This document shows, in pieces, positions 4,011 to 31,132 of a DNA stretch of 64,000 bases. A model generated the notes under the pieces. It did no database searches. It was not told the DNA's origin and was given only the letters and a program-made list of their open reading frames with translations. Source of the DNA: Thermoleophilia bacterium (lineage in GTDB: Bacteria > Actinomycetota > Thermoleophilia > UBA2241); the NCBI GenBank assembly GCA_016933475.1, contig JAFGAW010000027.1, forward strand, positions 403 to 64,402, read 5' to 3'. The position numbers and the translations under genes are program-made. Numbering within the stretch: position 1 is the stretch's first letter; each line of letters opens with the position of its first letter.

Positions 4011-5333
4011 TCAGAGATCGGCTCTGGCGAGCGCGACGGCGATCTGGTCCTGGGCCCGGCGGGCGCGGTAGACGTCGACCGGGTCGCCGTTCATCAGCAT
4101 CGCGACGAACACCTGGTGGCCGTCGGCGCTCTGCACGCAGCCCGAGAGACAGCACGAGATGCGCAGCGTCCCCGTCTTGCCGCGGAAGTCGCCCGCCGCC
4201 GCCGTCCCGCGCAGGCGCGTGGCCAGCGTCCCGTCGACGCCGGCGATCGCCAGTGAGGCCCTGAAGGTCGCCCAGTCCTCCCGCAGGCGCATCGCCCGCA
4301 GCAGGCGCACGACCCCCTTCGCGCTCAGCCGGTCGAGGTAGCAGAGCCCCGAGCCGTCGTAGAGGCGGTAGGCATCGTCCGGCACGCCGAGGGCGGCGAG
4401 GGTCTCGCGCGCCACCCGCAGGCCGGCCGCCGTGGAGCCCACGCCGTAGACATCGCGCCCGAGACCCTTGAGCAGCATCTCGGCGAAGAAGTTGTCGCTG
4501 TCCTTGTTCAGGACCTTCAGCAGCGTGGCGAGAGGCGCCGAGTACACGGTGTGCATGCGGCGCGCCCCCTCCGGGACCTTGCCGGCCCGCGCCGCGCCGA
4601 CGACGTCGATCCCGGCGCGCTCGAGCAGCGTCCTGAAACGCCGGGCGACGTACAGCGGCGGGTCGTCGACGCGCTCGCCGGCATACCAGTTCTCGTTCAG
4701 CGACAGGGCCGACAGGGGCCCGCACTCGATCCGGAGGTGCGGGCTCCAGCTCGAGACCACGCGCCGCGCGTCGAACCAGGTGGCGTCGCCGAAGACGCGC
4801 CCCTGGATCTTCCTGACGCCGAGGCTCTTGAGGTAGGCGACGAACTCCTGGATCGCACCGGTCTTGATGCCGTACGCCTCGCGCTGGTACGTCAGGGTGG
4901 AAAAGGCCGGGTCCCCATAGCCTTTGAGGTAGACGTCGCCATAGATCGTGCGCTGGCCCGGCTTCAGGGGCAGGGTGAAGAAGAGCGAGGTGGGGAAGCG
5001 GTGGTCGGCCGGCCAGGTGACGAGCGCGGCCGAGCTCGTCACGAGCTTCATGTTGGACGCCGGTGCGAGGAGCGCGCCGCTGTTCCAGCCGTAGAGGGGC
5101 GCGCCGGTCGTCCGGTCGTAGACTGAGACCCCGGTGCGCGAGGTCGCGACGCCGTTGTCGCGCAGGATCGCGCTGATGCGCCGGCTGATGGTGCTCGCAC
5201 CCGCGCTCGCCGGCAGGGCCGCCGCGAGCAGGGTGACCAGCAGGAAGAGGGCGAGGACGGCGGCCGCGAAGCGGCGCGGCCCCGCCGGCCGCGGGCAGTG
5301 AGGGTCGAGCCGCTGTCGTCTGCTCATGATCAT
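4011..5333 (-). CDS. D-alanyl-D-alanine carboxypeptidase/endopeptidase, PBP4 (S13) family, secreted
   Basis: N-terminal signal/TM segment; SNMKL (SxxK) and KTGTL motifs typical of DacB/PBP4; start taken at the internal ATG (MIMSRRQRL) rather than the longest ORF. Confidence 0.75.
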   Translation of the reverse strand: MIMSRRQRLDPHCPRPAGPRRFAAAVLALFLLVTLLAAALPASAGASTISRRISAILRDNGVATSRTGVSVYDRTTGAPLYGWNSGALLAPASNMKLVTSSAALVTWPADHRFPTSLFFTLPLKPGQRTIYGDVYLKGYGDPAFSTLTYQREAYGIKTGAIQEFVAYLKSLGVRKIQGRVFGDATWFDARRVVSSWSPHLRIECGPLSALSLNENWYAGERVDDPPLYVARRFRTLLERAGIDVVGAARAGKVPEGARRMHTVYSAPLATLLKVLNKDSDNFFAEMLLKGLGRDVYGVGSTAAGLRVARETLAALGVPDDAYRLYDGSGLCYLDRLSAKGVVRLLRAMRLREDWATFRASLAIAGVDGTLATRLRGTAAAGDFRGKTGTLRISCCLSGCVQSADGHQVFVAMLMNGDPVDVYRARRAQDQIAVALARADL

Positions 5334-5464: not shown

Positions 5465-8400
5465 ATGCTGCTTCAGGACCTTCTGCAGAGCGAGAGCCTC
5501 ACGACGGCCGCGCCGCGGCTGCGCCGCGGCGCGGCCGTCTACGCGCCGACCTTCTTCGCGCCCTACGTGCTCGCCGGCCTCATCGCCGCCGAGGGCGGCG
5601 GGCGGCTCGTGGTCGCGCCCGACGCCGAGGCCGCGGCGGCGCTGGCCGCCGAGCTCGGCGTCTACCTCGAACGCGAGGTCCCGGTGCTGCCGGCGCGCGG
5701 CGTGCTCTACGGCGCCGACGTGGCGCCGGCGCCGCACGTCGTCGGCCAGCGCCAGCAGGCGCTGGCCGCGCTCGGCGCCGGCGGGGTCGTCGTCGCCGAC
5801 TGCGTCGCCGCGCTGGAGCGCTTCCTGCCCCTCGACCTGCAACCCGAGCCCTTGTCTCTTGTCGTCGGCGAGGAGACGCCGTTCGATCTGACGGTCGAGC
5901 GTCTCGTCGCGCTCGGCTACGGGCGCGTCGAGCAGGTCCGCGGCCGCGGCGAGTTCGCCGTCCGCGGCGGTCTCGTCGACGTCTACCCCTCCATCGGCGA
6001 GCCCCTGCGCGTCGAGTTCTGGGGCGACGAGGTCGAGCGCCTGCGCACCTTCTCGGTGTACTCCCAGCGCACGGCGGCGGAGGTCGCCGAGGCGACCGTG
6101 TACGCGGCCTTCGAGGCCGACACCGCCGGCGACGACTTCCAAGGCGCGGTGCGGCAGGTCGAGGCGGCGTGGGAGGACGAGGGCCGCGACGAGGCGCCCG
6201 ACGACGTCGTCCGCCGCGCCGAGGTGCGCGCCCTCGCCGGCCTGGCCGGGCGCTTCACGACTCTCGCCGAGTGCGCCGCCGGGGCGGGGCTGTCGCTCAT
6301 CGTCCTGCGGCCCGACGAGACCTGGCGCGCGCTCGCCGACTTCGCCGCCGAGGTCGACCTCGTCTTCGGTGCGCCGACGCGTGAGCGCGGCGGGGCGGCC
6401 GGCGCCGCGACGGGCGCTCCACCCGCCGCCCGCGACCGTCTTTACGTGCCGCTCCCCGAGACGCGTGCCCTGCTCGCCCGTGGCCTGCAGCTCGAGGTCG
6501 TGCGCCGCGAGCAGGCGATCGAGCTCGCCGCCAGCCGGCCGCAGTTCGCCGCCCGCGACCTGGGCGGCGCCGAGCGCGACCTCGCCCGGCTCGTCAACGA
6601 CGGCTACCGCGTCTACGTCGTCTTCCGCCACGACGGCGAGGCGCAGCGCGCCGCCTACCGGCTGCGCCACCTGACCGCCGAGGTCCTCGAAGCCGGGGAG
6701 GCCGGGCGGGCGGAGCCGGCTGCGCCCGGCCTCTACTTCCTCGCCGCGCCGCTGCGCGAGGGCTTCGTCTCCGCGGATCTGAAGCTCGCCGTGATCCCGG
6801 AGCGCTCGCTCCTCCGGGGGCCCTCCCGTGAGCGGCGCTTCGTCGGCGGCACGCGCCTCGCCAGCTTCTTCGACGTGCGCCCCGGCGACTACGTGGTCCA
6901 CGAGGACCACGGCATCGCCCGCTTCGCCGGGGTCGAGACGCGCACCGTGGCCGGCATCACCCGCGACTACCTCCTGCTGCAGTTCAGGGGCGACGACCGC
7001 GTCTTCGTCCCCCACGAGCAGATCGGCAAGGTCAGCCGCTACATCGGCGCCGGGGCCGGCGCCCCGCCGCTCAACAAGCTCGGCGGCACCGCCTGGCTGG
7101 CGGTCAAGACGCGGGCCCGCAAGGCGGTCGTCGAGATGGCCGGCGAGCTGCTCCAGCTCTACGCCTCGCGTCAGGCGGTGCCCGGCTTCGCCTACCCGGC
7201 CGACGGCGACCTCACGCGGCGCCTCGAGGAGTCGTTCCCCTTCGAGGAGACCGAGGACCAGGCCGAGGCCATCGACGAGGTCAAGAACGACATGGAGGCG
7301 CCGCACCCCATGGACCGCCTCGTCTGCGGCGACGTCGGCTACGGTAAGACCGAGGTCGCCCTGCGCGCCGCCTTCAAGGCGGCCGAGGGCGGCAAGCAGA
7401 CGCTGGTGCTCGTCCCCACCACCATCCTCGCGCAGCAGCACGCCGTGACCTTCGCCGAGCGCTACGAGGACCTGCCGGTCGAGATCGGGATGGTCTCGCG
7501 GTTCCGCACCAAGGCCGAGCAGCGCGACGTCCTCACGCGCTTCGAGAAGGGCGACGTCGACGTGCTCATCGGCACCCACCGGCTGCTCTCGACCGACGTG
7601 CGCCCCAAGGACCTGGGGCTCGTGGTCGTCGACGAGGAGCAGCGCTTCGGCGTGCGCCAGAAGGAGCTGCTCCGTCACCTCAAGCTGCAGACCGACGTGC
7701 TCAGCATGAGCGCGACGCCGATCCCGCGCACCCTGCAGATGTCGCTCTCCGGCATCCGTGACATCTCCGTCATCGAGACGCCGCCCCGTGGCCGCCATGA
7801 GGTGCGCACCTACATCGGCGAGTACAGGGACGACCTCGTGCGCGCCGCGATCGAGAAGGAGCTCGCCCGCGGCGGCCAGGTCTTCTACCTGCACAACCGC
7901 GTCGAGACCATCGAGGAGGCGGCCGAGCACGTGCAGGAGCTGGCGCCGAAGGCGCGCCTGCTCGTGGCCCACGGCCAGCTGCACGAGCGCGCCCTCGAGA
8001 AGGTCATGCTCGCCTTCCTCGCCGGCGAGGCCGACGTGCTGGTCACGACCTCGATCATCGAGAGCGGCATCGACATCCCCAGCGCCAACACGCTGATCGT
8101 CGAGCGCGCCGACATGCTCGGCTTGGCGCAGCTCTACCAGATCCGCGGGCGCATCGGGCGCAGCGACGCCTACGCCTACGCCTACCTGCTCTACCCGAGC
8201 GAGGAGATGTTGACCACCGAGGCGGCGGCCCGCCTGACGACCCTGAGCGACCACACCGAGCTCGGCGCCGGCTTCCGCATCGCCATGGCCGACCTCGAGA
8301 TCCGCGGGGCCGGCAACCTGCTCGGCGACGAGCAGTCGGGGCACGTGGCCGCGGTCGGCTTCGAGATGTACGCGCAGATGCTCGAGGAGGCGGTCGCCGA

Positions 8401-8928: not shown

Positions 8929-8932
<4 letters not shown>
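5465..8932 (+). CDS. mfd: Transcription-repair coupling factor
   Basis: 1155 aa; superfamily-2 helicase motifs ([24 protein letters not shown]); UvrB-homology N-region and TRCF C-terminal region; typical size. Confidence 0.9.
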
Positions 8933-9978
<1,046 letters not shown>

Positions 9979-10018
9979 GGGCGGGCGACCGCCGCTCGGG
10001 CACGCCGCGGCGCGCGCC

Positions 10019-11293
10019 GTGGGCCTGACCTTCGTGTACATCGGCGCCGCCGCCGGCGCCGTGCCCGCAGCCTCGCTCCGGGCCCTTGCCGGCGGCGGCG
10101 CCGTCTTCGTCCCGGCCGGCCTCGACGACGAGCTCCGCGCCGCGATCGGCGAGGCCGCGGGCCCGGCGGAGGGCCGGCTGTTCGACGTCGATGCCGCTGA
10201 CGCCGCGGCGCTCGACGAGATCGCGGCCGCCGCGGCCGCCGGGCCCGTCTCCGTGGTCCTCGCCGGGCCGCAGGCGCCGCGGCTCGCCCGCGCCCTGCGG
10301 GCGCGCGCGGCCGCGGCGGCGCCGGCCCTCGAGACGGCAACCGTCCCCGCCGGCCCCGCCTTCGACGACCTGCTCCTGGGTCAGGAGCTGGTCTCCCTCA
10401 AGCGCATCGTCGACGTGCTCCGCGTCGAGTGCCCCTGGGACCGCGAGCAGACGGCGGGCGACATCGTCTCGTACACGCTCGAGGAGACCTACGAGCTCGT
10501 CGACGCCGTTGCCCGCGACGATCTCGCCGACGTGCACGGCGAGCTCGGCGACCTGCTGCTGCAGGTCGTGATCCTCGCCATGATGCAGGCCGAGCGCGAG
10601 GCCGGCGACCTGGGCAGCGTCACCCACGACATCGTCGCCAAACTGATCCGTCGCCACCCGCACATCTTCGCCGACGCCCGGGCCGACACGGCCGCCGAGG
10701 TCAAGGGCCGCTGGGAGCAGATCAAGCGCGAGCAGGAGGGCCGCGAGGGCGTCTTCCACGACGTCCCCGCCGCTCTGCCCGCCCTCCTCCGCGCGCAGAA
10801 GCTCCAGCAGCGTGCGGCGGCCGTCGGCTTCGACTGGCCGTCGGCAGCGGCCGCCTTCCCCAAGGTCGCCGAGGAGCACGAGGAGCTCGCGGAGCTCTTC
10901 GCCGAGGCGGCCGGTGCGGGCGGCCCGACCGCCGCCTCATCCGATGCCGCGGCCAGTGCGGGCGGCACGACGGCCGCCTCACCTGACGGCGCGGCCTCCG
11001 CAGCTGCTGCCGTGGACCCCGGCGCTCCCGACCCGAGCCGCCACGACCCCCGCGTGCGTCACGAGGTCGGCGACCTGCTCTTCGCCGTCGTCAATGTGGC
11101 CCGCCTCCTGCACGTCGACCCCGAGCTGGCGCTCCGTGAGGCGGCCGACCGCTTCGAACGCCGGGTCACCGCCGCGGCTGCTCTCGCCGCTGCGGAGGGC
11201 GTCGAGTGGGCCGCTGCGGAGCTCGAGATCCAGGAGTCGTACTACCAGCGCGCCAAGGCGGCACAGGAGAGCGGCGGTACCCCCGCCGGTTGA
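10019..11293 (+). CDS. mazG: Nucleoside triphosphate pyrophosphohydrolase MazG, with a ~120 aa Ala-rich N-terminal extension
   Basis: First MazG core CPWDREQT...ETYEL...ELGDLLLQV; second MazG repeat EVGDLLFAVVNVARLLHVDPELAL...FERR; a low-complexity linker separates the two. Confidence 0.75.
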   Translation: MGLTFVYIGAAAGAVPAASLRALAGGGAVFVPAGLDDELRAAIGEAAGPAEGRLFDVDAADAAALDEIAAAAAAGPVSVVLAGPQAPRLARALRARAAAAAPALETATVPAGPAFDDLLLGQELVSLKRIVDVLRVECPWDREQTAGDIVSYTLEETYELVDAVARDDLADVHGELGDLLLQVVILAMMQAEREAGDLGSVTHDIVAKLIRRHPHIFADARADTAAEVKGRWEQIKREQEGREGVFHDVPAALPALLRAQKLQQRAAAVGFDWPSAAAAFPKVAEEHEELAELFAEAAGAGGPTAASSDAAASAGGTTAASPDGAASAAAAVDPGAPDPSRHDPRVRHEVGDLLFAVVNVARLLHVDPELALREAADRFERRVTAAAALAAAEGVEWAAAELEIQESYYQRAKAAQESGGTPAG

Positions 11294-11404
11294 GGCAGGT
11301 CCAGCGCACTCCTGTGCGGCTGCGACCCTCGGCCGGGGCAGCGGCGCAGGCGACGCGGCCCTCCTGCGCCGACCCGGCCCGCGGCCGTCCGGTCCATCAG
11401 CGGC

Positions 11405-12142
11405 TCAGCCGGGCCAGGTGCCCGCGAAGTTCTTCACGCTGCGCAGGGGAGCCTCCTGCTCGTCGCCCTTCGGCTCGGCGGCGAAGCGGTGGTTCCTCTT
11501 GCGCAGGTACTCGGCGAGGCCGTCACGCTCGGCCTCGAGCGTCGCGAGGTGCTTCCCGACCAAGGCATCGACGACGACGTCGTCCACGTCTCGTGTCAAG
11601 GCGATGACCAGGTGAGGTCGGCAGAGCAGACCGGGGGACGCCGCATACTCGGCGCGGAACGCGTCGTCGGCGAGCGCCTCGAGCAAGGTGCGGAGCTTGC
11701 GCTCGGTGGCTTCGTCGGCCGCCTCGCAGAGCCGGCAACGGGTGCGCGCACGTAGCGCGGCGACGACCTTCTGTGCGCGCCGGCCGCGCTTCCCCCCGGG
11801 CGCGGCCGACGTCAGCGCCTCGATGTCGTCGCGCACGAGGTCGCTCATGACGTCGGCGACCCCCGCCAGGTTGTAGATCTGGCCGCTGGCGGCGTCGAAG
11901 AGCATGCGGAAGTGACGCCGGCAGAACCCCTTCGAGGCGCGCAGCTTCTTGCGCAGGCCCACATCGGTCAACCCCTCGTAGGCGAGCCAGTGCAGCCGCG
12001 CACGCTCCTGTTCGTCGAGGACGGTGCACAGAGGGCACTCAGAGCGCTGCGCCGTGCGCACGGCGTCGCGCAGCTTCGTGCCGTGCGGGTCGCCCGAGGT
12101 GCGCCGCTCGCTCGCGTACTTCTCGAAGTCCAGCAGTCCCAT
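11405..12142 (-). CDS. Hypothetical helical protein with two CPxC...CxxH modules (paralogue B), downstream of the dynamin-like GTPase
   Basis: 245 aa; modules ECPLC-x39-CRRH and CRLC-x37-CRPH; no recognisable catalytic motifs; lies 47 nt after paralogue A on the same strand. Confidence 0.5.
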   Translation of the reverse strand: MGLLDFEKYASERRTSGDPHGTKLRDAVRTAQRSECPLCTVLDEQERARLHWLAYEGLTDVGLRKKLRASKGFCRRHFRMLFDAASGQIYNLAGVADVMSDLVRDDIEALTSAAPGGKRGRRAQKVVAALRARTRCRLCEAADEATERKLRTLLEALADDAFRAEYAASPGLLCRPHLVIALTRDVDDVVVDALVGKHLATLEAERDGLAEYLRKRNHRFAAEPKGDEQEAPLRSVKNFAGTWPG

Positions 12143-12189
12143 GCGATCTCCTGCTCCTCGGTCTCCCGTTCCCGCGGCGTCCGGCCGGG

Positions 12190-12867
12190 TCAGGTCGTGT
12201 GGTCTTCTCCGGAGAGCGCGGCGACGGCGGCCCGCCAGCTCTCGCGCTCCTCCGGGGACGGTTCGTCGGTCACGTGCATGTGGTGTGTCCTCAGGTAGCC
12301 GTCGAGATGCTCGACAAGACGCCTCATCTGCCCGCGCTGTACCTCGCGCAGCGACGCTCTCACCGCGTCGGTCATCTCCTCACTCCAGACGAGGCGGAAG
12401 TGCGGCAGGCAGAGGCCCTGCTCGCGCGCCGCGAAGCGGTGCGCGAGCTCCTCCTCGGCCAGGCCGCCGGCGAGCTGCAGCGCGCGGCTCGTCTGCAGGG
12501 AGGCGAGCGTCGTGCAGATGGGGCACGACGCGCCGCCCGTCGCGGGCTCGGGGCGAGAGGCGGTGCGCCGCTTCGTGGACGGGGTCTCCAGGGAGTCGAG
12601 CGCCTCCTGGAGCAGGGGGCGTGCGAGGCTCGCATTGATGAGGCCGTCTCGCCAGGTCTCCTCCTCGAGGTGCTGAAGCGCCCAGGCGTGGCTCCGGCAG
12701 AAGCCTCCGGCGCGCGCGAGCCGGCCCAGCAGTCTGGCGTTCGAGGAGCCCTCGCGGAGCAACGTGCGAAGGGCGCGGTCCTCGTCCTCGTGGGCGAGCC
12801 GGCAGAGGGGACAGCCCGGCAAGGCAAGGACGCGCAGCACCTCGACCTTCTGCAGGCGGTCCAGCAT
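12190..12867 (-). CDS. Hypothetical helical protein with two CPxC...CxxH modules (paralogue A)
   Basis: Start placed at the internal ATG (MLDRLQKVEV) to avoid overlap with the upstream GTPase; modules GCPLC-x38-CRSH and CPIC-x38-CLPH; clear pairwise similarity to 11405-12142. Confidence 0.5.
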   Translation of the reverse strand: MLDRLQKVEVLRVLALPGCPLCRLAHEDEDRALRTLLREGSSNARLLGRLARAGGFCRSHAWALQHLEEETWRDGLINASLARPLLQEALDSLETPSTKRRTASRPEPATGGASCPICTTLASLQTSRALQLAGGLAEEELAHRFAAREQGLCLPHFRLVWSEEMTDAVRASLREVQRGQMRRLVEHLDGYLRTHHMHVTDEPSPEERESWRAAVAALSGEDHTT

Positions 12868-12910
12868 CAGTCGCCGAAGCCGTGGCGTCGTGCGGCGGCG
12901 CGCGGCATCG

Positions 12911-14686
12911 TCAGCCGCCGCCGACGAGGATCGCCCGTGCAGCCCGGATGCTCTCCAGTTCCGCGGAGGCCTGGCGGCGTGCGCTCTCGGCCTCGCCGGC
13001 GGCCAGCCTTCGCTGCTCCAGCCCTCGCGCGACGGCGCCGTCGATGGAGCGCGCAATCCCGTCGAGCTGCTCGTGACCCTCGCGACGGACCCGGAGAGCG
13101 GCTTCGCGGAGACCGGCGGCGAGCTCGCTGCGCAGGCGCCCCGCGTGACGGTTGGCGAGCTCGCCGGCCCGTTCGCGGGAGCGTCGTGCGAGCAGCCGCC
13201 GCCGCAGCGGGCCCGGCACGGGTGCCTGCAGCGCCCCCGTCAGCATCTCGAGGCCGACCGGGTCGTCGCGCAGCTTGACGTCGACCGTCGGGGTGAGCTC
13301 TCCGGGTGACAAGCGCTGCGGGCGGGCGATCGTCACGCCGAGGACGCGCTCGGTGTCCCGGGTCAGCTCGACGGCGAGGCGGTCGAGAGCCTCGAGCAGG
13401 CGGGCCGCCGCGTCTCCCACACCCTCCTGCACGACGGCGGCCTCGAAGGTCGTCCGCGAGGCGAGCGCGGCGGCGATCGTCGCCGCCATGAGCTCGTCGA
13501 CGCGCTTCTCGTCGACCCGCTCGTCGCCCCGCAGGACGGGCTCGAGCGCCTCGAGCAGGTCACTCTCGAGCGCCCGGCGGAAGGCCGCGGCCCGGTCGCT
13601 CAGGGCACGCTCCACCTCCTTCACGCGGTGATCGAAGACGGCGTCCTGCTCTTCGGCAAGGCGGGTGATCGTGCCCCGGCTGGCGGTCAGCTCCTCCAAG
13701 GCGACGCCGAGTTCCTGCTCGCTGCGGCCGGCCACCTCGGCGAGCACCAGGTGCTCGGTCTCGAGCTCGTCGAGCAGGGCGAGGACGCGGCGCTCGGCGC
13801 GTGCGGCGTGCAGCGCCTCGTACCGCTCCTCGAGAAGCGCGGTCAATCGCGAGTGCAGCTCGGGTACGCCGCTCGCCGGGTCGCCGTCGAGGGCGGCCTT
13901 GGCCGACACGGCGAAGACCGGTGCGTCGCTGAGCCCGACGCCGGCCAGACGGCCGGCGACGAACGCGAGAGCCTCGGCTGCCTCGCTGCCCGAGAGGTAG
14001 TCGGTCTTGTTGAGCGCGAACAGCAGCTCGGCGCCGCGCTCGCGGAGATCGACGGCCAGCCGCTCCTCGGCCTCGGTGAGAGGCTGGTCGACCGAGAGCA
14101 CGATGAGTGCCACGTCGACCTGGGGAAGGAAGGCGAGCGTGTGGTGGCTGCCGGTCTCGAGCACCGAGCCGAGACCGGGCGTGTCGACGAGCACCGTGTG
14201 CGACGGGAGGTCGAGCTCCGGCAGCGTGATCTCGACGCGCGACAGGCCACGCCGGTTCCCCGGGTTGCCGGCCTCGGTGACGTAGTCGGCCAGGCGCTCG
14301 ACGTCGAGCGTGGTCTGCGAGCCGTCCTCGGCACAGGCCATCGAGCGCCGGGGACCCCGGCGCAACACGGTGACCACCGACGTGAGGGGGACGACGCCGA
14401 CGGGGAGGAGGCGCCGTCCGGCGAGGGCGTTGAGGAGCGTGCTCTTGCCGCGTTTGAACTCGCCGAGGGCGACGACGTACAGTCCCGCCTCGTCGACGCG
14501 CCGCCGCACGGCGTCGATCCGCTCGCGTTCGCTCTGGTCGAAGCTCCGGAGGCGCAGACGACGGAGGGCTTCGGCCGCCCGACCCGGGGCCTCGGCGGGC
14601 GGCGCCTCGGGGCTCGCGACGGTGGGCGTGTCGGGGGCGACCGGGGCCTCCTCGCCTCGTGTCGCGTGTGCCTCGGCTGGCGTCAC
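12911..14686 (-). CDS. Bacterial dynamin-like protein (large GTPase)
   Basis: G1 GEFKRGKST, G3 DTPGLGS and G4 NKTD motifs with dynamin-like spacing; ~590 aa with a long helical stalk region; GTG start. Confidence 0.75.
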   Translation of the reverse strand: MTPAEAHATRGEEAPVAPDTPTVASPEAPPAEAPGRAAEALRRLRLRSFDQSERERIDAVRRRVDEAGLYVVALGEFKRGKSTLLNALAGRRLLPVGVVPLTSVVTVLRRGPRRSMACAEDGSQTTLDVERLADYVTEAGNPGNRRGLSRVEITLPELDLPSHTVLVDTPGLGSVLETGSHHTLAFLPQVDVALIVLSVDQPLTEAEERLAVDLRERGAELLFALNKTDYLSGSEAAEALAFVAGRLAGVGLSDAPVFAVSAKAALDGDPASGVPELHSRLTALLEERYEALHAARAERRVLALLDELETEHLVLAEVAGRSEQELGVALEELTASRGTITRLAEEQDAVFDHRVKEVERALSDRAAAFRRALESDLLEALEPVLRGDERVDEKRVDELMAATIAAALASRTTFEAAVVQEGVGDAAARLLEALDRLAVELTRDTERVLGVTIARPQRLSPGELTPTVDVKLRDDPVGLEMLTGALQAPVPGPLRRRLLARRSRERAGELANRHAGRLRSELAAGLREAALRVRREGHEQLDGIARSIDGAVARGLEQRRLAAGEAESARRQASAELESIRAARAILVGGG

Positions 14687-14825
14687 ATCCCTCTCCTCAC
14701 GAAAAAAGCTCCTGCCCGGTCGGTTCGGACAGAAGCCATCAGCGCCTCAGCGCGGTTCGCGAGCTTCATCGCGTGGAAAGCACTTTACCACGGGCTCGCC
14801 GAGAGCGTCGAGCGGACTGCTGTAG

Positions 14826-16211
<1,386 letters not shown>

Positions 16212-16480
16212 GGCGGACCGGGGAGCGAGGGGTCTGTCCGGCACGCGTCGGAGTGGCGCCGGCTCTGCCCGGGCGCCCGTCGTGGTCCGTCGGGGTGGCA
16301 CGGGGACGCCCGATAGCGGCTCAGTGCCGGGCCCGCCCGGTGTCGGCTCGCGGCCGTGCCCGACCTGACGCCGCACGGGTGGACAACTCGGCGCGGCCGA
16401 CCCACACTGTGACGACGAGGCGCGGCGCGGCCGGGTGAGGCGGCGCCACGCCGGACCGGCAGACGAAAGGAACGGGGCGC

Positions 16481-17329
16481 ATGTACTGTCCTGAGTGTGG
16501 CACCGAGGCGGGCGAGGCGAAGTTCTGCCCCGAATGCGGCGCCGATCTCGGAGCGGTGCGGGGCGCCCTCAAGGGCAAGGTGGCCGCCAAAGGGCCGGGC
16601 GGCAAGGCCGGCCCGGGCGGCAGGGCCGGCGGTGGGCGCCAGGGCGGCGCGGCCGGCGGCGGCAAGGGCCACGCGGGCTCCGGCGGGCCTGCCGCTCAAG
16701 AGGCCGCTCCGGCTCCGTCCGGCGGCCTCTCCCCCCGCGTCCTCTGGGTGATCGTCGCCGTCGTCGCCGTCGCGGTCGTCGTCGCGGTCGCACTACTCTC
16801 GGGCGGCAGCGAGCAGCCGGCGGCCGACGCCGGCTCCGGGGGCATGACGTCCGGGGGTGTCACGCCCGTGGCCGTCGACCTCTCCGGCAGCTACCGCGAG
16901 CTCGTGCAGCGGGCCCATGACCTCTACGACCAGGGTGATGCGCTCATCCAGGCCGGGGACTTCGAGCAGGGCGTCGAGTACTTCGCCGCCGCCGCCCAGG
17001 TCTACGAGGCGGCTTGGGCCAAAGAGCCCGGCGACCCCAATGTGGGCACCGACTGGGCGACCTCGCTCTTCTACAGCGGCGACTTCGACGCGGCGGTCGC
17101 CCAGGTCGAGGTCGTCCTCGAGGAGAGCCCCGACTTCCAGCCCGCCTGGTTCAACCTCGGCAACTACCTGCAGCACCAGGCGCGCATGGCCGAGAGTTCG
17201 GGCGACACGGCCGAGGCGGAGCGGCTCAACGAGGCGACGCGAGAAGCCTACGAGACGGCTGCCGAGATCGACCCGGCCTCGGACACGGGCATCGAGGCGG
17301 CGGCACGCGCCGCCGAACTCGCCGAATAG
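16481..17329 (+). CDS. Hypothetical membrane protein: N-terminal zinc ribbon, Gly-rich linker, one TM helix, TPR-like C-domain
   Basis: YCPECGTEAGEAKFCPECG double CxxC; hydrophobic VLWVIVAVVAVAVVVAVALL; helical repeats with conserved Y/F/A/G spacing. Confidence 0.5.
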   Translation: MYCPECGTEAGEAKFCPECGADLGAVRGALKGKVAAKGPGGKAGPGGRAGGGRQGGAAGGGKGHAGSGGPAAQEAAPAPSGGLSPRVLWVIVAVVAVAVVVAVALLSGGSEQPAADAGSGGMTSGGVTPVAVDLSGSYRELVQRAHDLYDQGDALIQAGDFEQGVEYFAAAAQVYEAAWAKEPGDPNVGTDWATSLFYSGDFDAAVAQVEVVLEESPDFQPAWFNLGNYLQHQARMAESSGDTAEAERLNEATREAYETAAEIDPASDTGIEAAARAAELAE

Positions 17330-17346
17330 TCCGTGCCGGGCACGCC

Positions 17347-18783
17347 GTGACCGAGCGCACCGACCCGCTCGCGCAGTGGCGACGGACGAAGATCGTCGCC
17401 ACGCTCGGCCCCGCCACGGCCGACGAGGCCACCGTGGAGGCCCTCGTGCGCGCCGGCATGAACGTCGCCCGCATCAACCTGTCTCACGGCACCCCGGAGG
17501 AGCACGCCGCGCTGCTCACCACGGTGCGCCGCGTCGCCGCGCGGCTGGACGCCGCGGTCGGAGTCATGGCCGACCTGCCGGGGCCCAAACTGAGGGTCGG
17601 CGACCTCGCCGAGCCCGTCGCGATCGCCGTCGGCGACCGCGTGACGCTCGGCGCCCACGCCGACCTCCCGGCCAACTTCCCCGGACTGTTGCGGCACTTC
17701 GCCGCCGGGCAGCGCGTGCTCATCGACGACGGCGCCGTCGCGCTGCGCGTGGCCGCCGTCGAGCACTCCGGCGGCTCCCACGCCAAGGTCGTCCTCGAGG
17801 CCCAGAACGCGGGCGTGATCGAGACGCGCAAGGGCGTGAACCTCCCCGACACGCCCCTGCCCATCCCGGCCTTCACGGCGGAGGACGAGGGACATCTGCG
17901 GCACGTCCTCGAGCTCGGCGTCGACTTCGTCGCCGAGTCCTTCGTGCGCTCTGCCGCCGATGTCGAGTTGTTGAAGCGACGGATCGCCGAGCTCGGCGGC
18001 GACCAGCTCGTCGTCGCCAAGATCGAGAAGCGCGAAGCACTTCTGGCTCTCGACGACATCGTCGCCGTCGCCGACGCGCTGATGATCGCCCGCGGCGACC
18101 TCGGGGTGGAGATCCCGCCCGCCGAGGTGCCGGTCTGGCAGAGGCGCATCATCAATGCCGCGCGCGTCGCGGCGCGGCCGGTGATCACGGCCACGCAGAT
18201 GCTGCAGTCGATGGTCTCGAACCCGCGCCCCACGCGGGCCGAGGCGAGCGACGTCGCCAATGCGATCTACGATTCGACCTGCGCGGTGATGCTCTCGGGC
18301 GAGACCTCGATCGGCGCCTACCCGGTCGAAGCCGTCGGCACGATGGCCGAGATCGCGCGCGTCGTCGAGGCCGACATCGCCCGCGACGGCTGGCCGCTGC
18401 AGGAGTGGGCCCAGCGCCGGGCACGGACCTCCGACGCGATCAGCTACGCCGCCTGCGACCTGGCCCGCAAGATCGGCGCCGTCGCCATCGTGACGCCGAC
18501 GGCGACGGGGGCGACCGCGCGCGCCGTCGCGCGCTACCGCCCGTCGCCGCGTATCGTCGCCGTCAGTCCCCGCCCCCGGACGGTCACACAGCTCGCGCTC
18601 GCCTGGGGCGTCACGCCTCTGCTCCGTGAAGAGGTCCCTCACGCGGACGCCGTGATCCCGAGCAGCAACGACGCCGTGCTCGCGGCCGGGCTCGCCGGTG
18701 CGGGCGACCTGGTGGTCATGACCGCCGGCCTGTACGCGACCGCCGGCTCCACCAACCTCATCAAGGCGCACGTACTTCAGTAG
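17347..18783 (+). CDS. pyk: Pyruvate kinase
   Basis: RRTKIVATLGP, MNVARINLSHG and MIARGDLGVEIP motifs; GTG start chosen at 17347 inside the longer ORF. Confidence 0.85.
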   Translation: MTERTDPLAQWRRTKIVATLGPATADEATVEALVRAGMNVARINLSHGTPEEHAALLTTVRRVAARLDAAVGVMADLPGPKLRVGDLAEPVAIAVGDRVTLGAHADLPANFPGLLRHFAAGQRVLIDDGAVALRVAAVEHSGGSHAKVVLEAQNAGVIETRKGVNLPDTPLPIPAFTAEDEGHLRHVLELGVDFVAESFVRSAADVELLKRRIAELGGDQLVVAKIEKREALLALDDIVAVADALMIARGDLGVEIPPAEVPVWQRRIINAARVAARPVITATQMLQSMVSNPRPTRAEASDVANAIYDSTCAVMLSGETSIGAYPVEAVGTMAEIARVVEADIARDGWPLQEWAQRRARTSDAISYAACDLARKIGAVAIVTPTATGATARAVARYRPSPRIVAVSPRPRTVTQLALAWGVTPLLREEVPHADAVIPSSNDAVLAAGLAGAGDLVVMTAGLYATAGSTNLIKAHVLQ

Positions 18784-21205: not shown

Positions 21206-21291
21206 GCCGGAGTGGCGGAACTGGTAGACGCAGGGGACTTAAAATCCTCAGTCCCGCGAGGGACGTCCGGGTTCGACTCCCGGCTCCGGCA
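21206..21291 (+). tRNA. tRNA-Leu (anticodon TAA), long variable arm; CCA encoded immediately 3'
   Basis: Acceptor stem GCCGGAG/CTCCGGC; D-arm GTGGCGGAACTGGTAGACGC; anticodon loop CTTAAAA; long extra arm; T-arm GGGTTCGACTCCCG; discriminator A followed by CCA. Confidence 0.85.
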
Positions 21292-21353
21292 CCACAGTGC
21301 AAGAGTACACGCCGGGGACGTGAACGAACGCCTCCGGTCGTGGGAGAGACGCG

Positions 21354-22445
21354 CTACCAGCGCCTCGGCATCTTCGGCACCGGGGTCTCGTCGCCCCGAG
21401 GGCGGGCCCGAGACCGCTGCCGGTCCTCCACGACTGCCGTGGAGCGTGCCGCACGGGCCGCTTCCTGCTCAGCCGACAAGTCGAAGTCGCGAGGGAGATG
21501 ACAGGCGATCCGCCGGCCGTCGCGGTCCTCGAGTGGCGGGATTTCTTGGTCGCAGACGTCCATGCGGAACTTGCAGCGCGGATGGAAGCGGCAGCCGCTC
21601 GGCGGGTCGATGGCGCTGGGCACATCGCCGGAGAGGGCCGCACCCGCACTGCGCCGGTCGGGATCCGGCGACGGCACGCTGGCCAGCAGCGCCAGTGTGT
21701 AAGGATGACGGGGATCTTCGAAGATCGTGGCCGTCGGGCCGCTTTCGACGATCTTGCCCAGGTACATCACGGCCACTGCGCTGGCGACCGACTCGACGAC
21801 CGCCAGATCGTGGGCGATGAACAGGTAGGAGAGAGTGAGTTCGATCTGCAGCCGGTGCAGCAGGGTGAGGATCCGGGCCTGCACCGAGACATCGAGGGCA
21901 GAGGTCGGTTCGTCCAGCACCATGAGGTCGGGCGACAGCGCCAGCGCCCTCGCGATGGCGATGCGCTGGCACTGACCGCCGCTGAACTCGTGCGGCCGCC
22001 GCCAGAGGTGCTGCGTGCCGAGGCCGACCATCTCGAGCAACTCGACCACGCGCTCGCGGAGAGCGTCGCCGCTGATCTCGCTGCCTACCCGCAACGGTTC
22101 GGCGACCAGGTCGTGGACCGTCATGCGCGGATTCAGCGAGGAGTAGGGATCCTGGAAGACGACCTGCATCCCTCGGCGCGCGGTCCGTTGTGTACCCCTC
22201 GAAAGAGCCAGCAGGTCGCGCCCGGCGAAGACGATGCTGCCCTTCTGCGGCTTGTTGAGCCCCAGGATGGCGTGCGCAACGGTTGTCTTGCCGGAGCCGG
22301 ACTCGCCGACCAGAGCAAGGGTCGTGCCTCTCTCGAGCGAGAAGCTCACTTCGTCGGCGGCGTGCACTGTGTCGATCGACTTACGCGTCAGACCGCGGCG
22401 TATCTTGAAGTGGACGGTCAGGTCCTCGACCTCCAGAAGGGACAC
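21354..22445 (-). CDS. Oligopeptide/dipeptide ABC transporter ATP-binding protein (OppF/DppF-like)
   Basis: Walker A GESGSGKTT, signature FSGGQCQRIAIARAL, Walker B LMVLDEPTSALD; C-terminal oligopeptide-ABC extension with a Cys cluster; GTG start just after the upstream stop. Confidence 0.8.
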   Translation of the reverse strand: MSLLEVEDLTVHFKIRRGLTRKSIDTVHAADEVSFSLERGTTLALVGESGSGKTTVAHAILGLNKPQKGSIVFAGRDLLALSRGTQRTARRGMQVVFQDPYSSLNPRMTVHDLVAEPLRVGSEISGDALRERVVELLEMVGLGTQHLWRRPHEFSGGQCQRIAIARALALSPDLMVLDEPTSALDVSVQARILTLLHRLQIELTLSYLFIAHDLAVVESVASAVAVMYLGKIVESGPTATIFEDPRHPYTLALLASVPSPDPDRRSAGAALSGDVPSAIDPPSGCRFHPRCKFRMDVCDQEIPPLEDRDGRRIACHLPRDFDLSAEQEAARAARSTAVVEDRQRSRARPRGDETPVPKMPRRW

Positions 22446-22446
22446 G

Positions 22447-23679
22447 TCACTCCCTCCTGATGTCGTCGCCGGATTCTCCTGTCGCCGGTCCCCCGCCGGC
22501 GGTGTGCTCGATGCCCGGATCGCGATTGAAGGGAACACCGGCGGCCCCGACGCCTGGCTCGTGACCGGTCGTGACGCCGACACCACGGCCGCTCTTCTCT
22601 TGCACCCAGTGACATGCGGTCCAGTGGTCACGCGCCACTTCGAACGGGGTCGGCATGGTGTCGCGACAGATGTCGCGCACATGTGCGCAACGTTCATGGA
22701 ACCGGCAACCGGCCGGCGGGTCGATCAAGTCCGGCACCGCACCGGGGATCGTCTTGAGCTGTTCAGCACTCTTCCCTTGCGGCAGACACTCGATGAGTGC
22801 CAGCGTGTAGGGGTGTCGCGGGCGCTTCAGGACGTCCGCCGTCGGGCCCTCTTCGACCACGTTCCCGGCGTACATGACGGCGATCCGATCGCAGGTCTGG
22901 GCAGCGACGCCGACGTTGTGGGTGATGAGGATCTGCGACACCCCCAGTTCGTCGCGCAGGCGAAGCAGCAGTTTGAGTATCTGCATCTGTATGGTCACGT
23001 CGAGCGCGGTGGTCGGCTCATCGGCGACCAGCAAGCCTGCCCCGCAGGAGATCGCCATCGCCATGCAGACGCGCTGACGCATGCCGCCGCTGAGTTGGTG
23101 CGGGTACGACTTGAGCAACGCGTCCGTGGGCGGCAGACCTGTCGCCTGCAGTGCCGTGCGAACAGCCTCCAGGGCTGCCTTCTTCTCGAGGTCATGATGG
23201 ACCCGTACGACGCGGCTGATCTGCTCGCCGACAGTGAAGACCGGATTGAGGGAGGCCAGCGGGTCCTGGAAGACCATGGAGATGACCTTGCCCTTCAAGG
23301 CGCGCATCTCCTGCTGCGGCTTGGCCAGCAGGTCATCTCCCTTGAACAAGATGCGACCCGACGTGACTTGTGCCTGCGGTTTGGGGAGCAGTCCGAGCAC
23401 CGAGTAGCCGGTCACCGTCTTGCCGCACCCCGACTCGCCGACCAGGCCGACTATCTCACGCTCGTGCACCGTCAGATAGACGCCGTTGAGCGCCTTGACA
23501 ACGCCTCGAAGACTGCGGAACTCCACTCGTAAGTCTTCTATCTCGAGGACGGGTCCGCCGACCGGGCCTCGCTCGGCGACTGCCGCCCCGTCTTCCCTGT
23601 CGGCACCTGCGGGGGGCTGCTTCGCGGTGACCGGTGCTGGTCCTTCCGCCGCGGTTCTTCTCCGAAACACCCTGTTCAC
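22447..23679 (-). CDS. Oligopeptide/dipeptide ABC transporter ATP-binding protein (OppD/DppD-like)
   Basis: GESGCGKTVTG, LSGGMRQRVCMAMAI, LLVADEPTTALD. Confidence 0.8.
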   Translation of the reverse strand: MNRVFRRRTAAEGPAPVTAKQPPAGADREDGAAVAERGPVGGPVLEIEDLRVEFRSLRGVVKALNGVYLTVHEREIVGLVGESGCGKTVTGYSVLGLLPKPQAQVTSGRILFKGDDLLAKPQQEMRALKGKVISMVFQDPLASLNPVFTVGEQISRVVRVHHDLEKKAALEAVRTALQATGLPPTDALLKSYPHQLSGGMRQRVCMAMAISCGAGLLVADEPTTALDVTIQMQILKLLLRLRDELGVSQILITHNVGVAAQTCDRIAVMYAGNVVEEGPTADVLKRPRHPYTLALIECLPQGKSAEQLKTIPGAVPDLIDPPAGCRFHERCAHVRDICRDTMPTPFEVARDHWTACHWVQEKSGRGVGVTTGHEPGVGAAGVPFNRDPGIEHTAGGGPATGESGDDIRRE

Positions 23680-24593
23680 CTCTTGAGCCGCGGATCGAGT
23701 ATGTCGCGCAGGGCGTCACCGACGAGGTTATAGGCCAGGACCAGACCGAAGACGGCGATACCGGCGAATGTCGACAACCACCACGCGGAGAGGATGTACT
23801 GACGCCCCTCACTGATCATCAGGCCCCACTCCGGCGTCGGCGGCTTGGCGCCCAAGCCGATGAAGCTCAGCGCCGCGACCTCGAGGATGACCGCACCCAC
23901 GTCGACCGTCATCTGGACGATGACCGGACCGAACGCGTTGGGGAGGATGTGGCGGCGAATGATGGTGAAGTGGGAGACACCCATCGTTTTGGCAGCCAGC
24001 ACGTAGGGCCGTTCGCGCAGCGAGATCGCCATGCCGCGCACCAGGCGCGCATACCAGGGCCACCAGGTGATCACGAGGGCCAGCGCCACGTTACGAAGAC
24101 TGGCCCCCAAGAAGGCGACCAGCGCCATGGCGAACACCAGCGCCGGGAAGGCGAGGAAGATGTCCGTGATGCGCATCACCGCTTCGTCGATCCATCCGCC
24201 GAAGTACCCGGCGATACCGCCCAGCGGCACGCCGACGAGGAGCACGCCGGCGGTGACCACGACGCTGATGACGAGTGGGATACGAGCTCCGAACATGACG
24301 CGGCTCAGTACGTCGCGGCCTTGCTGATCAGTGCCCATGATGTTCTCGGCACTCGGCGGCTGCAGTCGGTTGGCCATGTCGGAATCGCCACGTCCCTGCT
24401 CCGGATAAGGCGCCAGGTACGCGGCGAAGACCGCGACGACCACAGTGGCCACGATGACGATCAGTCCTGCAACGGCGAGCTTGTCGCGCAGGAACACGTG
24501 GAGATTGTGCCTGGCTTCCTCGATGCCCGACTGGTGACGGGCGCGCCAGTCGGCGAATCGGCTCGTTCTCACCGCCACCGTAGTGTCCATCAT
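23676..24593 (-). CDS. ABC transporter permease (OppC/DppC-like)
   Basis: Six predicted TM helices and the BPD_transp_1 region with the EAA-like loop; ATGA overlap with the downstream gene. Confidence 0.8.
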   Translation of the reverse strand: MMDTTVAVRTSRFADWRARHQSGIEEARHNLHVFLRDKLAVAGLIVIVATVVVAVFAAYLAPYPEQGRGDSDMANRLQPPSAENIMGTDQQGRDVLSRVMFGARIPLVISVVVTAGVLLVGVPLGGIAGYFGGWIDEAVMRITDIFLAFPALVFAMALVAFLGASLRNVALALVITWWPWYARLVRGMAISLRERPYVLAAKTMGVSHFTIIRRHILPNAFGPVIVQMTVDVGAVILEVAALSFIGLGAKPPTPEWGLMISEGRQYILSAWWLSTFAGIAVFGLVLAYNLVGDALRDILDPRLKR

Positions 24594-24600
24594 CGGCTTC

Positions 24601-25626
24601 TCACGAGAGCATCACCCGCGGGTCGAGCTTGGCGATGATCAGGTCGACTATCAGGTTCACGGTCACGTAGGCGAGAGCGACGATGATCGTGACGCCCATG
24701 ATGGCCGGGTAGTCGAGATTCAGGATCGAGATCGTTGCGTAGGTCCCGAGACCGGGCCAGGCGAAGATCTGCTCGATGAAGAAGGTGCCCACGAGCGCGT
24801 ACGCGAACAGCAGGCCGATCACGGTGAGCACCGGCGCCATCGCGTTCTTGAGCGCGTAGCGGCCGACGATCACTCGGTCAGGTACGCCCATCGCGTAGGC
24901 CATGCGCGCATAGTCCGATTCGAGAGCGTCGAGCATTGCCGATCGTGTCATTCGCATCGTGGTGCCGGCGCAGTAGGCGGCCAGCGCCAGGGTGGGCAGG
25001 ATGAGGTGTCTGAGCGCATCCCAGAACGCCACCCAGTTGCCGGTGATGAGCGAATCCACGACGACCATCCCGGTGATGTCCGTGACAGGGTACTCCCGGG
25101 CGACCGAGATCGAGAGCTGTCCGGCGACCGGCAAGAGGCCCAGCACGCGGAAGAAGACGATCTGCAGGACAAGAGCCAGGAAGAACGACGGTAGCGAGAC
25201 ACCGGCGATGGCGGCCACCCGCCCCGTATGGTCCGCGAGGCGACCTTTGCGATATGCAGCGAACGCTCCCATGGAGATACCCGTCACCACAGCCAAGGCC
25301 ATCGCGCTCAGGATGAGTTCCAGCGAGGCCGGTAGAAAGCCCATGATGTCGCCCAGCACGGGGCGGTGGGTGCGCAGCGAGTTTCCCCAGTCACCTCTGA
25401 CGAAGTCCTTGACGTAGAGACCGAACTGCACGACGAGCGGCTTGTCGAGCCCGAGGGCTTCTCGCGCCGCTGCCTTCTGCTCCGGTGTGTGGCGCCCGCC
25501 CCCAAGGTACAGGGCCGTGGGGTCGGTGGGAATCACACGGCTGACGACGAACGTGACCGCCATGACGCCGAGGATGACGAAGACCAACAGCGCGAGACGG
25601 CGGATGATGTAGGCACGGAATGTCAT
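24601..25626 (-). CDS. ABC transporter permease (OppB/DppB-like)
   Basis: MTFRAYIIRRLALLVFVILGV N-terminus typical of DppB/OppB; multiple TM segments. Confidence 0.8.
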   Translation of the reverse strand: MTFRAYIIRRLALLVFVILGVMAVTFVVSRVIPTDPTALYLGGGRHTPEQKAAAREALGLDKPLVVQFGLYVKDFVRGDWGNSLRTHRPVLGDIMGFLPASLELILSAMALAVVTGISMGAFAAYRKGRLADHTGRVAAIAGVSLPSFFLALVLQIVFFRVLGLLPVAGQLSISVAREYPVTDITGMVVVDSLITGNWVAFWDALRHLILPTLALAAYCAGTTMRMTRSAMLDALESDYARMAYAMGVPDRVIVGRYALKNAMAPVLTVIGLLFAYALVGTFFIEQIFAWPGLGTYATISILNLDYPAIMGVTIIVALAYVTVNLIVDLIIAKLDPRVMLS

Positions 25627-25966
25627 TGGAGTCGCTCCGCTGTTCGCGTGCCGGTCGCCATGACGTCACCGGGCTCTGTCAGACCCAGAGACAGGGATGA
25701 CACCACTCGGGTCACGGCCGTCGCGTCGCCTTGGTCACATCACCCTCTGTTCTCCAGGAGTCGCCTCGCGGTCGGGCACATCGACTGATCGTTGGTCTTG
25801 CCGGCCCGAGGGGCGCCTCATCGGTGAGATCGCCTGGACAGAAACGCTTCCAGTGAGACGAGATGGGGCGGCGCGGAACGAACCCGCGCGCCGCCCCACC
25901 TACAGCAGCAAGAACCCGGTGGACGCCGCGTCATGCGCCGACTTCCGCCGAAGTCCGCAACACAGA

Positions 25967-27598: not shown

Positions 27599-28161
27599 GT
27601 CGCCCCCTTCGGTGGACTGGGCATGCGACTCGGCCGACGACGGAGACTGCGCGACGACGGCCGCTTGTCTACACAAGCAAGATGCCAGAATCGCATCTAG
27701 TATCGGCGATGGCTCGCGGGGGTGTCAAATCATTGGCGGGCGCTTGCAGTATGAATAGTGCGCACGGTCCCCACAGTCCCCGTCTGTCTCGTGATTCACT
27801 ACCGATCTCGCCGCGATGACGGGAGACCTTGACATGATCGGGCGGCCGTGAAAGGGTGCAGCCTGGTATTGTCTGTATGAACAAGCTATACCGGCCGCTT
27901 GGAGCGTTGCGGGAGCATCTGCCAGAGACCATGCGGGCAGGCAGCACCGGTCTCGTCGGCCAGAGGGCCTGCCATCGCACCCATCAGGCCGGAGATACGC
28001 GAGACGAAGCACGCGGTGGCTTCGGGTACTCGTTGAGTCGTTGCCTCGGCGTCACCGTCGTCGGCGTGGGGGCCGAGCACGCTGAGGCTCGCTGAGGTTG
28101 AGACCTCGCCCTGTCGCGGGGCGCGGTCTTTCTCTGACCAGCACGTTCGGAAGGAGGCCTC

Positions 28162-30900: not shown

Positions 30901-31132
30901 AGCGGTCGGACCGGGTGGTCACCTCCTCGGGGCGAAGCACACCCGACAGCACATCCGCGAAGCTGCACGGCTCGGTCTGCAACACGAGCGTGGCGAGGAC
31001 GGTCTGCTGCGCGATTCCCTCGTCGTCGCGCGTGAGCGTGTCGAGTGGAGCCGTGATCACCATGAGCCAGAGTCGCTGCCCGCTGAATCGAGGGAGGAAC
31101 TCGCCGCCAAGCCGGCGGAGGCGCACCGCCTG

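Follow-up and report, generated by a model that had tools for sequence, protein, structure and literature searches.

An operon encoding a dynamin-like GTPase (dynamin-like protein, DLP) and two DUF6062 proteins, A and B, was found behind a predicted fluoride riboswitch in a 64-kb window (the whole stretch of DNA analyzed here, 64,000 nucleotides) from a Thermoleophilia metagenome-assembled genome (MAG). Computation established the operon architecture as fluoride aptamer and terminator, DLP, DUF6062-A and DUF6062-B. The DLP subfamily and the DUF6062 family each recurred behind fluoride aptamers on many unrelated contigs, and DUF6062 domains were repeatedly adjacent or fused to DLPs. The locus is probably a fluoride-induced DLP module with metal-binding DUF6062 partner subunits, for which we infer a role in fluoride stress; the recurrence of this combination in many uncultured bacteria suggests that the bacterial response to fluoride stress includes a branch not described so far. 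The three operon proteins and the adjoining enolase were exact matches to MBN2203638-41, and the features of the locus were placed as follows.

14723..14782, minus strand: fluoride riboswitch aptamer (RF01734, crcB motif) in the 5' leader of the DLP operon
14701..14737, minus strand: intrinsic terminator hairpin and U-tract (expression platform), the 5' arm overlapping the 3' pseudoknot strand of the aptamer
12911..14686, minus strand: DLP, 591 aa, GTG start, operon gene 1 (NCBI MBN2203640)
12190..12867, minus strand: DUF6062 protein A, 225 aa from ATG, operon gene 2 (MBN2203639)
11405..12142, minus strand: DUF6062 protein B, 245 aa, operon gene 3 (MBN2203638)
14928..16211, plus strand: enolase (eno), divergent from the DLP operon and a conserved neighbor of the DLP subfamily
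10019-11293: mazG, on the other flank of the operon from eno

An earlier sequence-only reading of this DNA had described three co-directional minus-strand genes, divergent from eno and separated by 43 and 47 nt. These were present as claimed, with 43 nt between DLP and A and 47 nt between A and B; the NCBI annotation has the same three genes, and the orientation relative to eno was correct. The size of 245 aa given for one small protein held, and the 226 aa given for the other became 225 aa when counted from its ATG; the open reading frame (ORF) of protein A can be extended to a TTG at 13056. The aptamer and terminator lie outside the region which that reading covered, and were missed by it.

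The window was searched with Rfam cmscan in E-value mode after the gene neighborhoods had suggested fluoride. RF01734 matched the minus strand at 14782-14723 with all model positions (1-64) covered and a score of 32.0 bits; the E-value was 5e-6 in 6 kb and 2.9e-7 in the intergenic search (351 nt), and the 3' end of the aptamer lay 36 nt upstream of the GTG start codon of the DLP gene. With our own covariance model, built from relatives above the gathering score, the aptamer was the only match in the window; no RF01734 match was found on the plus strand upstream of eno. The conserved core that defines the aptamer (GCGAUG...CGC, AACCG, GCUGAUG...CU, P1, P3 and the pseudoknot between the P1 loop and the 3' tail) was present. 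The P1 stem (CGCG/CGCG) was paired and the pseudoknot (GAAGC/GCUUC) was fully complementary; relative to the consensus GGAG/CUCC, the window's GAAG/CUUC is a double compensatory change in a pseudoknot that the covariance model does not score.

The terminator scan returned a single site at 14737..14707, followed by TTTTTCGTGA, where 0.2 were expected. It had a 12-bp stem, a 7-nt loop and a fold energy of -22.7 kcal/mol (z -2.2). This hairpin (14737-14707) with its U-run shares the strand GGCUUCUGUC with the aptamer, so the leader holds both an aptamer and a competing expression platform. A terminator overlapping the aptamer is the usual arrangement for the crcB motif and predicts more expression when ligand is bound (PMC2864571). 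The leader thus appears to carry a fluoride aptamer overlapped by an intrinsic terminator in the usual ON-switch layout, and the predicted switching is that fluoride binding should allow read-through, because the aptamer 3' strand competes with the terminator. With such a riboswitch in its leader the operon would belong to the fluoride stress regulon, and the conserved eno neighbor fits this assignment. The order of aptamer, stem, U-run and Shine-Dalgarno sequence before the DLP was kept in loci L001, L011 and L026, with changes on both stem arms. RF01734 scores in orthologous or related leaders were 32.3 bits in L001 (at the orthologous position), 35.1 in L026, 45.4 in L014 and 50.3 in L038.

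The association extended well beyond the window. Our covariance model R1, built from 12 Rfam gathering-score aptamers, gave 155 matches in 896 kb of loci plus the window. Among 76 distinct DLP loci, an aptamer lay within 450 nt upstream in 44 and farther off, up to 3.5 kb upstream on the same strand, in 11 more, whose operons open with NhaP, Usp and similar genes; 15 had none and six had no upstream sequence, giving an aptamer in 55 of the 70 loci with upstream sequence. RF01734 was above the gathering score directly before the DLP in 14/17 loci, a sample drawn from R1-positive loci. Across 100 aptamers P1 was 99.2% paired, and the pseudoknot was 99% paired with double changes (covariation) at four of five pairs; the pseudoknot is not in model R1, indicating that the related aptamers are genuine. 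The related loci spanned 36% to 77% G+C, showing that the aptamer association is not confined to one lineage. Gathering-score aptamers stood directly before the DLP in L014, L026 and L038, before both the fused DLP and the free-standing DUF6062 gene in L011, and, in the DLP-less locus L018, before a free-standing DUF6062 gene; they also directly preceded NhaP-Usp-DUF6062 in L005 and NhaP-DLP-DUF6062-eno in L023. When contigs encoding homologs of A or B were sampled, 14 distinct DUF6062-seeded loci were obtained. An aptamer lay upstream in 10 of these 14, with a weak one in L102, and the loci with an aptamer and no DLP included L004, L005, L008, L016 and L018.

The ORFs of 99 loci and the window (100 sources) were clustered for a census of neighbors. 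Enolase clustered with the DLP in 26 of the 100 sources, window included, and this adjacency persisted even where the DLPs were only ~30% identical. Other DLP neighbors were MFS transporters (24 loci), Na+/H+ exchangers and Usp (16 loci each), CrcB (13 loci) and histidine phosphatases (10 loci); DUF190/CBS genes also occurred, and paired neighbors of ~530 aa were MutS domain V (MutS_V) by Pfam. Enolase is a classical fluoride target and is often riboswitch-controlled (PMC11139923); together with Na+/H+ antiporters, CrcB and MutS-like genes it is a classical companion of the crcB-motif riboswitch (PMC11139923, PMC2864571).

The metagenomic DLP loci (L020-L099) were dense "fluoride islands", with 129 aptamer matches in 641 kb (~2 per 10 kb) and up to five aptamers per locus (L048, L063 and L077; L011 also had five). 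The island aptamers preceded NhaP-Usp, eno, MutS_V pairs, NUDIX genes and IclR-type regulators, as well as MFS, CrcB, DUF190/CBS and histidine phosphatase genes. Other riboswitches occurred close by in two loci. In L018 a molybdenum-cofactor riboswitch (RF01055, 47.4 bits, 4078-4215) preceded an FmdE/zf-dskA gene, which is followed directly by the fluoride-controlled DUF6062 operon, so that two different riboswitches lie within 2 kb; in L056 a c-di-AMP riboswitch (RF00379, 79.4 bits, 2761-2989) lay 2 kb upstream of a DLP controlled by a fluoride aptamer. Locus L010, which has no DLP, carried a partial fluoride aptamer at 6816-6854 (model positions 10-49, Rfam 28.7 bits), 3' of an A-type DUF6062 gene and 5' of a MoxR-type AAA gene, whereas its DUF6062 gene had no aptamer ahead of it; the partial element may be a decayed or unusual switch.

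Judged from its sequence, the DLP is a bacterial dynamin superfamily member outside every characterized subfamily. It passed Pfam Dynamin_N (PF00350) with 72.8 bits (cut-off 27, E 4.3e-20), and the three motifs that define bacterial dynamin-like proteins, G1 GEFKRGKST, G3 DTPG and G4 NKTD, were all present, confirming the earlier description of a dynamin-like protein of ~590 aa. The best PDB sequence match was a C. jejuni DLP (5owv_C, E 9.6e-15); other close sequences were Nostoc BDLP (2j68, 3.3e-13) and M. tuberculosis IniA (6j72, 6.5e-12, residues 55-444). The best NCBIfam match, the DynA equivalog, reached 50.9 bits against a cut-off of 1600. The window DLP and the DLPs lying ahead of DUF6062 in L001, L011 and L014 aligned over their full lengths (66, 55 and 28% identity, respectively), and the signature TE[AR]GNPGN was common to all four.

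Proteins A and B both passed the Pfam cut-off (27) for DUF6062 (PF19538, model of 243 positions), with 34.7 bits over model positions 19-239 for A and 56.0 bits over positions 11-239 for B, and NCBI names their relatives "DUF6062 family protein". The earlier view that the small proteins could be placed in no family was therefore not borne out, although DUF6062 is itself a catalogued, large and uncharacterized family. Searching 1.84 billion cluster representatives (at 50% identity) with a profile gave 4,725 members at E <= 1e-3. Neither protein matched NCBIfam or PADLOC, and a PDB profile search gave nothing relevant. No ZAS anti-sigma (zf-HC2, HxxxCxxC) or other known zinc-binding family was among the Pfam and NCBIfam matches to E = 1, the only extra matches being chance-level zinc-ribbon fragments (E 0.19-0.28).

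A and B are paralogs with 24% identity over 207 residues (E 8e-12), and the two halves of the domain are homologous by profile-profile comparison (hhalign, probability 97.6%, E 3e-12); the internal duplication and the gene duplication proposed earlier were thus both found. Exactly six Cys occurred in each protein, all inside two CxxC...CxxH modules. The ligands were C19, C22, C57 and H60 (module 1) and C115, C118, C153 and H156 (module 2) in protein A, and C36, C39, C74 and H77 (module 1) and C136, C139, C174 and H177 (module 2) in protein B. Two modules per protein had been read correctly; the spacer was 34 residues in all four (CxxC-x34-CxxH) and not 37-41. Conservation of the Cys and His residues in orthologs was likewise seen: the eight ligand positions were invariant among 17 homologs and were retained in 37/37 domains spanning both modules, whether free-standing or fused. 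The two-module criterion for DUF6062 is our own definition, drawn from the alignments. A confident AlphaFold2 (AF2) model of B was all-helical (pLDDT 84, pTM 0.76), and in it each CxxC and each CxxH was predicted to sit at a helix N-terminus. Every DUF6062 domain consists of a helical module in duplicate and has two invariant predicted Cys3His sites; from these motifs each protein would bind two metal ions, most likely Zn2+.

The family fell into three subtypes: A, directly after a DLP; B, alone elsewhere or after A as in the window; and the domains fused to DLPs. The B subtype stood alone directly behind a fluoride aptamer in L004 and L008 and at the end of an aptamer-NhaP-Usp operon in L005. 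The fused domains formed a third, divergent group and were rejected as the origin of subtype A or B. Many members were tandem double-DUF6062 proteins of 450-520 aa (59 among the representatives fetched). Their frequency suggests that A and B may act as a pair; no consistent correspondence was obtained between A and B and the two halves of the doubles, which support pairing only in general terms.

DUF6062 was linked to DLPs by gene order and by fusion. A DLP adjoined DUF6062 in five of the 14 DUF6062-seeded loci (L001, L011, L013, L014 and L101), among them the syntenic ortholog L001, the Thermoanaerobacterales MAG L014 (another phylum than the window) and L101 with the order DUF6062-DLP-DUF6062. 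The order DLP then DUF6062 was present in the window and L001 (Thermoleophilia), in L014 and L101, and on further Actinomycetota-like contigs (L011-13, L022-24 and L026), recurring in Actinomycetota and Bacillota. A-subtype orthologs directly followed the DLP in L001, L011, L013, L022 and L023, often with a 4-nt stop/start overlap, and the A subtype was found away from a DLP in one case only (L010). Metagenome contigs were scanned with two DLP peptide motifs (protein motifs only), and the ORFs of the best 80 loci were searched with our own HMMs; a DUF6062 domain lay within 5 kb of the DLP in 21 of these 80, to be set against a family size of ~4,700 in 1.8 billion cluster representatives. A scan of genome contigs with a B-type alignment gave only two loci (L008 and L009), too few for statistics.

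DLP and DUF6062 were encoded as one polypeptide in 13 loci, 12 of the best 80 DLP loci and L011 (L011, L038, L049, L059, L061, L064, L069, L072, L076, L078, L088, L095 and L099). The DUF6062 domain was at the C-terminus, usually of a second, longer DLP beside a DLP of ~590 aa. Pfam independently detected Dynamin_N and DUF6062 in several of the fusions, and precomputed annotation lists PF00350 and PF19538 together in nine database proteins. The proposed linkage of the small proteins to dynamin-like genes was therefore confirmed, with gene order kept in two phyla and 13 natural fusions. The sequence-only reading had also opposed this locus to known bacterial dynamins, said to come as tandem pairs or fusions and not with Cys-rich partners; that contrast was too sharp, since relatives of the locus carry the Cys-rich domain at the C-terminus of the second DLP in a tandem pair.

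HEAT_2 repeat proteins of 129-507 aa were a third recurrent partner, in 13 loci; they directly followed DUF6062 or the DLP, or separated the ~590-aa DLP from the fused DLP-DUF6062 (e.g., L014 6713-7102, L059 6640-7161, L061 6639-7019, L064 3202-3579, L041 2719-4239 and L038 4413-5663). In several loci (L016 6782-7183, L018 6781-7176, L059 9799-10248, L072 4686-5135 and L101 6650-7120) DUF6062 or the fused DLP was followed by a small conserved ORF (131-156 aa) that matched nothing in Pfam; these ORFs may be further components of the module.

On these grounds, fluoride would bind the leader aptamer and prevent formation of the terminator, allowing read-through into DLP, A and B. Metal, likely Zn2+, at the Cys3His sites would hold the helix N-termini of DUF6062 together. 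The fusions and the tight gene coupling argue that DUF6062 works physically with the DLP, and A and B would be its partner or adaptor subunits, like the fused C-terminal domain of second DLPs elsewhere. IniA/IniC and DynA are stress-induced bacterial dynamins. By analogy with them, the DLP-DUF6062 complex would probably protect or remodel the cytoplasmic membrane during fluoride stress, in concert with other products of this regulon, namely Na+/H+ antiporters, exporters and additional enolase. Metal-fluoride complexes (AlF4-, MgF3-) classically trap the GDP-bound G domains of dynamin-superfamily proteins in an assembled transition state. A riboswitch-induced DLP could by this route be a protein-level fluoride sensor as well as an effector, and its output module would be the metal-site domain DUF6062; that the DLP-DUF6062 module, often with HEAT_2, is an export-independent fluoride-resistance machine whose GTPase cycle is possibly fluoride-gated is a speculative proposal to which we give little credence.

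Several results weighed against a fluoride-induced DLP module with DUF6062 subunits. The partnership is facultative: nine of the 14 DUF6062-seeded loci had no DLP, and about three quarters of the related DLP loci had no DUF6062 within 5 kb, many carrying HEAT_2 or NUDIX instead. The AF2 model of a natural short fusion, P0205, was too poor to show domain contact (pLDDT 62, pTM 0.44); its modeled order would be N-terminal helices, G domain, two long helices, a low-confidence linker and DUF6062. At 32.0 bits the window aptamer fell below the Rfam gathering score of 34 that sets membership, and the whole-window Rfam scan at the gathering threshold missed it, finding only a tRNA. No fluoride exporter or antiporter was found in the 64-kb window, nor any other fluoride-regulon gene looked for there (CrcB, NhaP, Usp, MFS, HEAT_2, MutS_V and others). 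The DLP showed no transmembrane or hydrophobic segment and no obvious paddle, its maximal 19-residue Kyte-Doolittle average (1.39) lying inside the G domain, so the predicted membrane role rests on family analogy only.

DUF6062 might instead be co-regulated with the DLP and not its partner, acting as an autonomous fluoride-response factor, for example in metal/redox homeostasis or as a nucleic-acid-binding regulator. This accounts for loci in which DUF6062 stands alone behind an aptamer with no DLP nearby (L004, L008, L016, L018 and L102), for the presence of a DLP in only 5/14 DUF6062-seeded loci and for the packing of many unrelated genes into fluoride islands. However, 13 independent loci encode DLP and DUF6062 as a single polypeptide, and the A subtype is nearly always directly 3' of the DLP, often with stop/start overlap. 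Fusion outweighs co-regulation as evidence for one complex, and we regard the co-regulation account as unlikely. Cys3His ligation also occurs in Fe-S clusters, e.g., the [2Fe-2S] cluster of CDGSH proteins. A DUF6062 domain that holds an Fe-S cluster or a redox switch, gating the GTPase upon oxidative damage caused by fluoride, would accord with such ligation and with the confinement of all Cys of A and B to the motifs; redox-regulated cysteines are described in other dynamin-superfamily proteins, such as at the mitofusin C-terminus (PMC5800796). A CPxC knuckle and a CxxH at helix N-termini, twice per domain, are nevertheless what structural zinc sites typically show, Pfam and NCBIfam gave no match to an Fe-S or redox family, and Fe-S assembly genes were not among the consistent neighbors, which makes a redox role quite improbable.

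The two remaining alternatives deny the fluoride link or recast the operon as defense. The sub-threshold Rfam score and the housekeeping surroundings (mfd, a SurA-like gene, mazG, eno and pyk) would suit a chance or decayed aptamer match before a housekeeping or cell-envelope DLP system unrelated to fluoride. This is very hard to reconcile with an E-value of 5e-6 over the full-length model, a pseudoknot kept by a double compensatory change, a terminator overlap exactly where expected, and the same element in the same place in orthologs and in 55/70 related DLP loci, many above the gathering score. An anti-phage dynamin system of the LeoA/LeoBC type with accessory proteins drew on PADLOC matches of the DLP to LeoA (1.2e-6, 25.9 bits, partial) and LeoBC (0.0067), and on one DUF6062 locus (L005) beside AbiE and restriction-modification genes. 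Those matches are partial and weak, and the shared G domain accounts for them; neither A nor B had a PADLOC match, the operon is under predicted riboswitch control, and the conserved neighbors are housekeeping and fluoride-regulon genes and not defense genes. The LeoA/LeoBC assignment was rejected and is hardly credible. A fluoride-induced DLP with DUF6062 partner subunits remains the probable reading.

In the window the operon lies inside a housekeeping block (8929-18783) with an mfd-like gene, a SurA-like gene, mazG, eno and pyruvate kinase, which is syntenic in L001. The gene 3' of eno (16481-17329, plus strand) encodes a 282-aa protein with an N-terminal double CxxC (MYCPECG...FCPECG), then a linker rich in Gly and Ala, a hydrophobic segment and a C-terminal portion that is helical; it gave no HMM match to DUF6062 and is unrelated. 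In the region 21206-32200 the G+C content fell to 0.63-0.68, compared with 0.70-0.76 elsewhere, just past a tRNA (21206-21291). This region has genes for an ABC transporter of the Opp/Dpp type (two ATPases, two permeases and an SBP_bac_5 protein), a methyltransferase of the MttB family and a regulator of the TetR/BetI type, and may be an acquired island for uptake and use of quaternary amines.

Most bacterial dynamin-like proteins have no known physiological trigger. Fluoride would be a defined, cheap and titratable inducer, making the function of this DLP subfamily directly testable. The fluoride regulon has until now been accounted for by exporters, pH homeostasis and the replacement of enzymes that fluoride inhibits; the results would add to it two unexplained families, the DLP subfamily and DUF6062, and probably also the small HEAT_2 proteins. 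For DUF6062 they provide a first functional context as well as a predicted partner protein. Should the DLP act on the membrane, the toxicity of fluoride would extend to a membrane lesion under active repair by the cell, which would matter for understanding how bacteria are killed by fluoride and for engineering strains that tolerate it in organofluorine chemistry.

Compared with known systems, the locus resembles M. tuberculosis IniBAC (IniA/IniC) in having a DLP of ~600 aa whose operon responds, here by prediction, to one specific chemical stress, and IniA (6j72) is among the closest solved sequences. However, induction there is by cell-wall inhibitors and here by a predicted fluoride RNA switch; the partners there are IniB or IniC and here DUF6062 metal-site proteins, and sequence similarity is low, indicating that the DLP is not an IniA ortholog. 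Like the tandem DLP pairs (C. jejuni DLP1/DLP2, Streptomyces DynA/DynB and the Bacillus DynA fusion), relatives of the locus have two adjacent DLP genes, and a C. jejuni DLP (5owv_C) is the best PDB sequence match of the window DLP. The second DLP of these relatives differs in bearing a C-terminal DUF6062 domain, whereas the window has no second DLP and only free-standing DUF6062 proteins. No tandem DLP pair described in the literature that we searched is known to have a DUF6062-like domain.

The window aptamer is a predicted fluoride riboswitch of the ordinary kind; its combination with DLP and DUF6062 was not found described. Our literature search returned nothing joining riboswitch, fluoride and dynamin, and nothing mentioning DUF6062, though the supplementary gene lists of Baker et al. 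2012 could still have an entry. The known regulon of RF01734 (crcB motif) comprises crcB/Fluc, CLC-F, Na+/H+ antiporters, enolase, pyrophosphatase, MutS-like genes and formate hydrogen lyase, and neither dynamin, GTPase nor DUF6062 appears in the gene lists of PMC11139923 or PMC2864571. The aptamer and the ON-switch logic of terminator overlap are the same here, and so are the companions in related loci (eno, NhaP, Usp, CrcB, DUF190/CBS and MutS_V); the difference lies in the genes controlled, which here are a dynamin-like GTPase and DUF6062 proteins.

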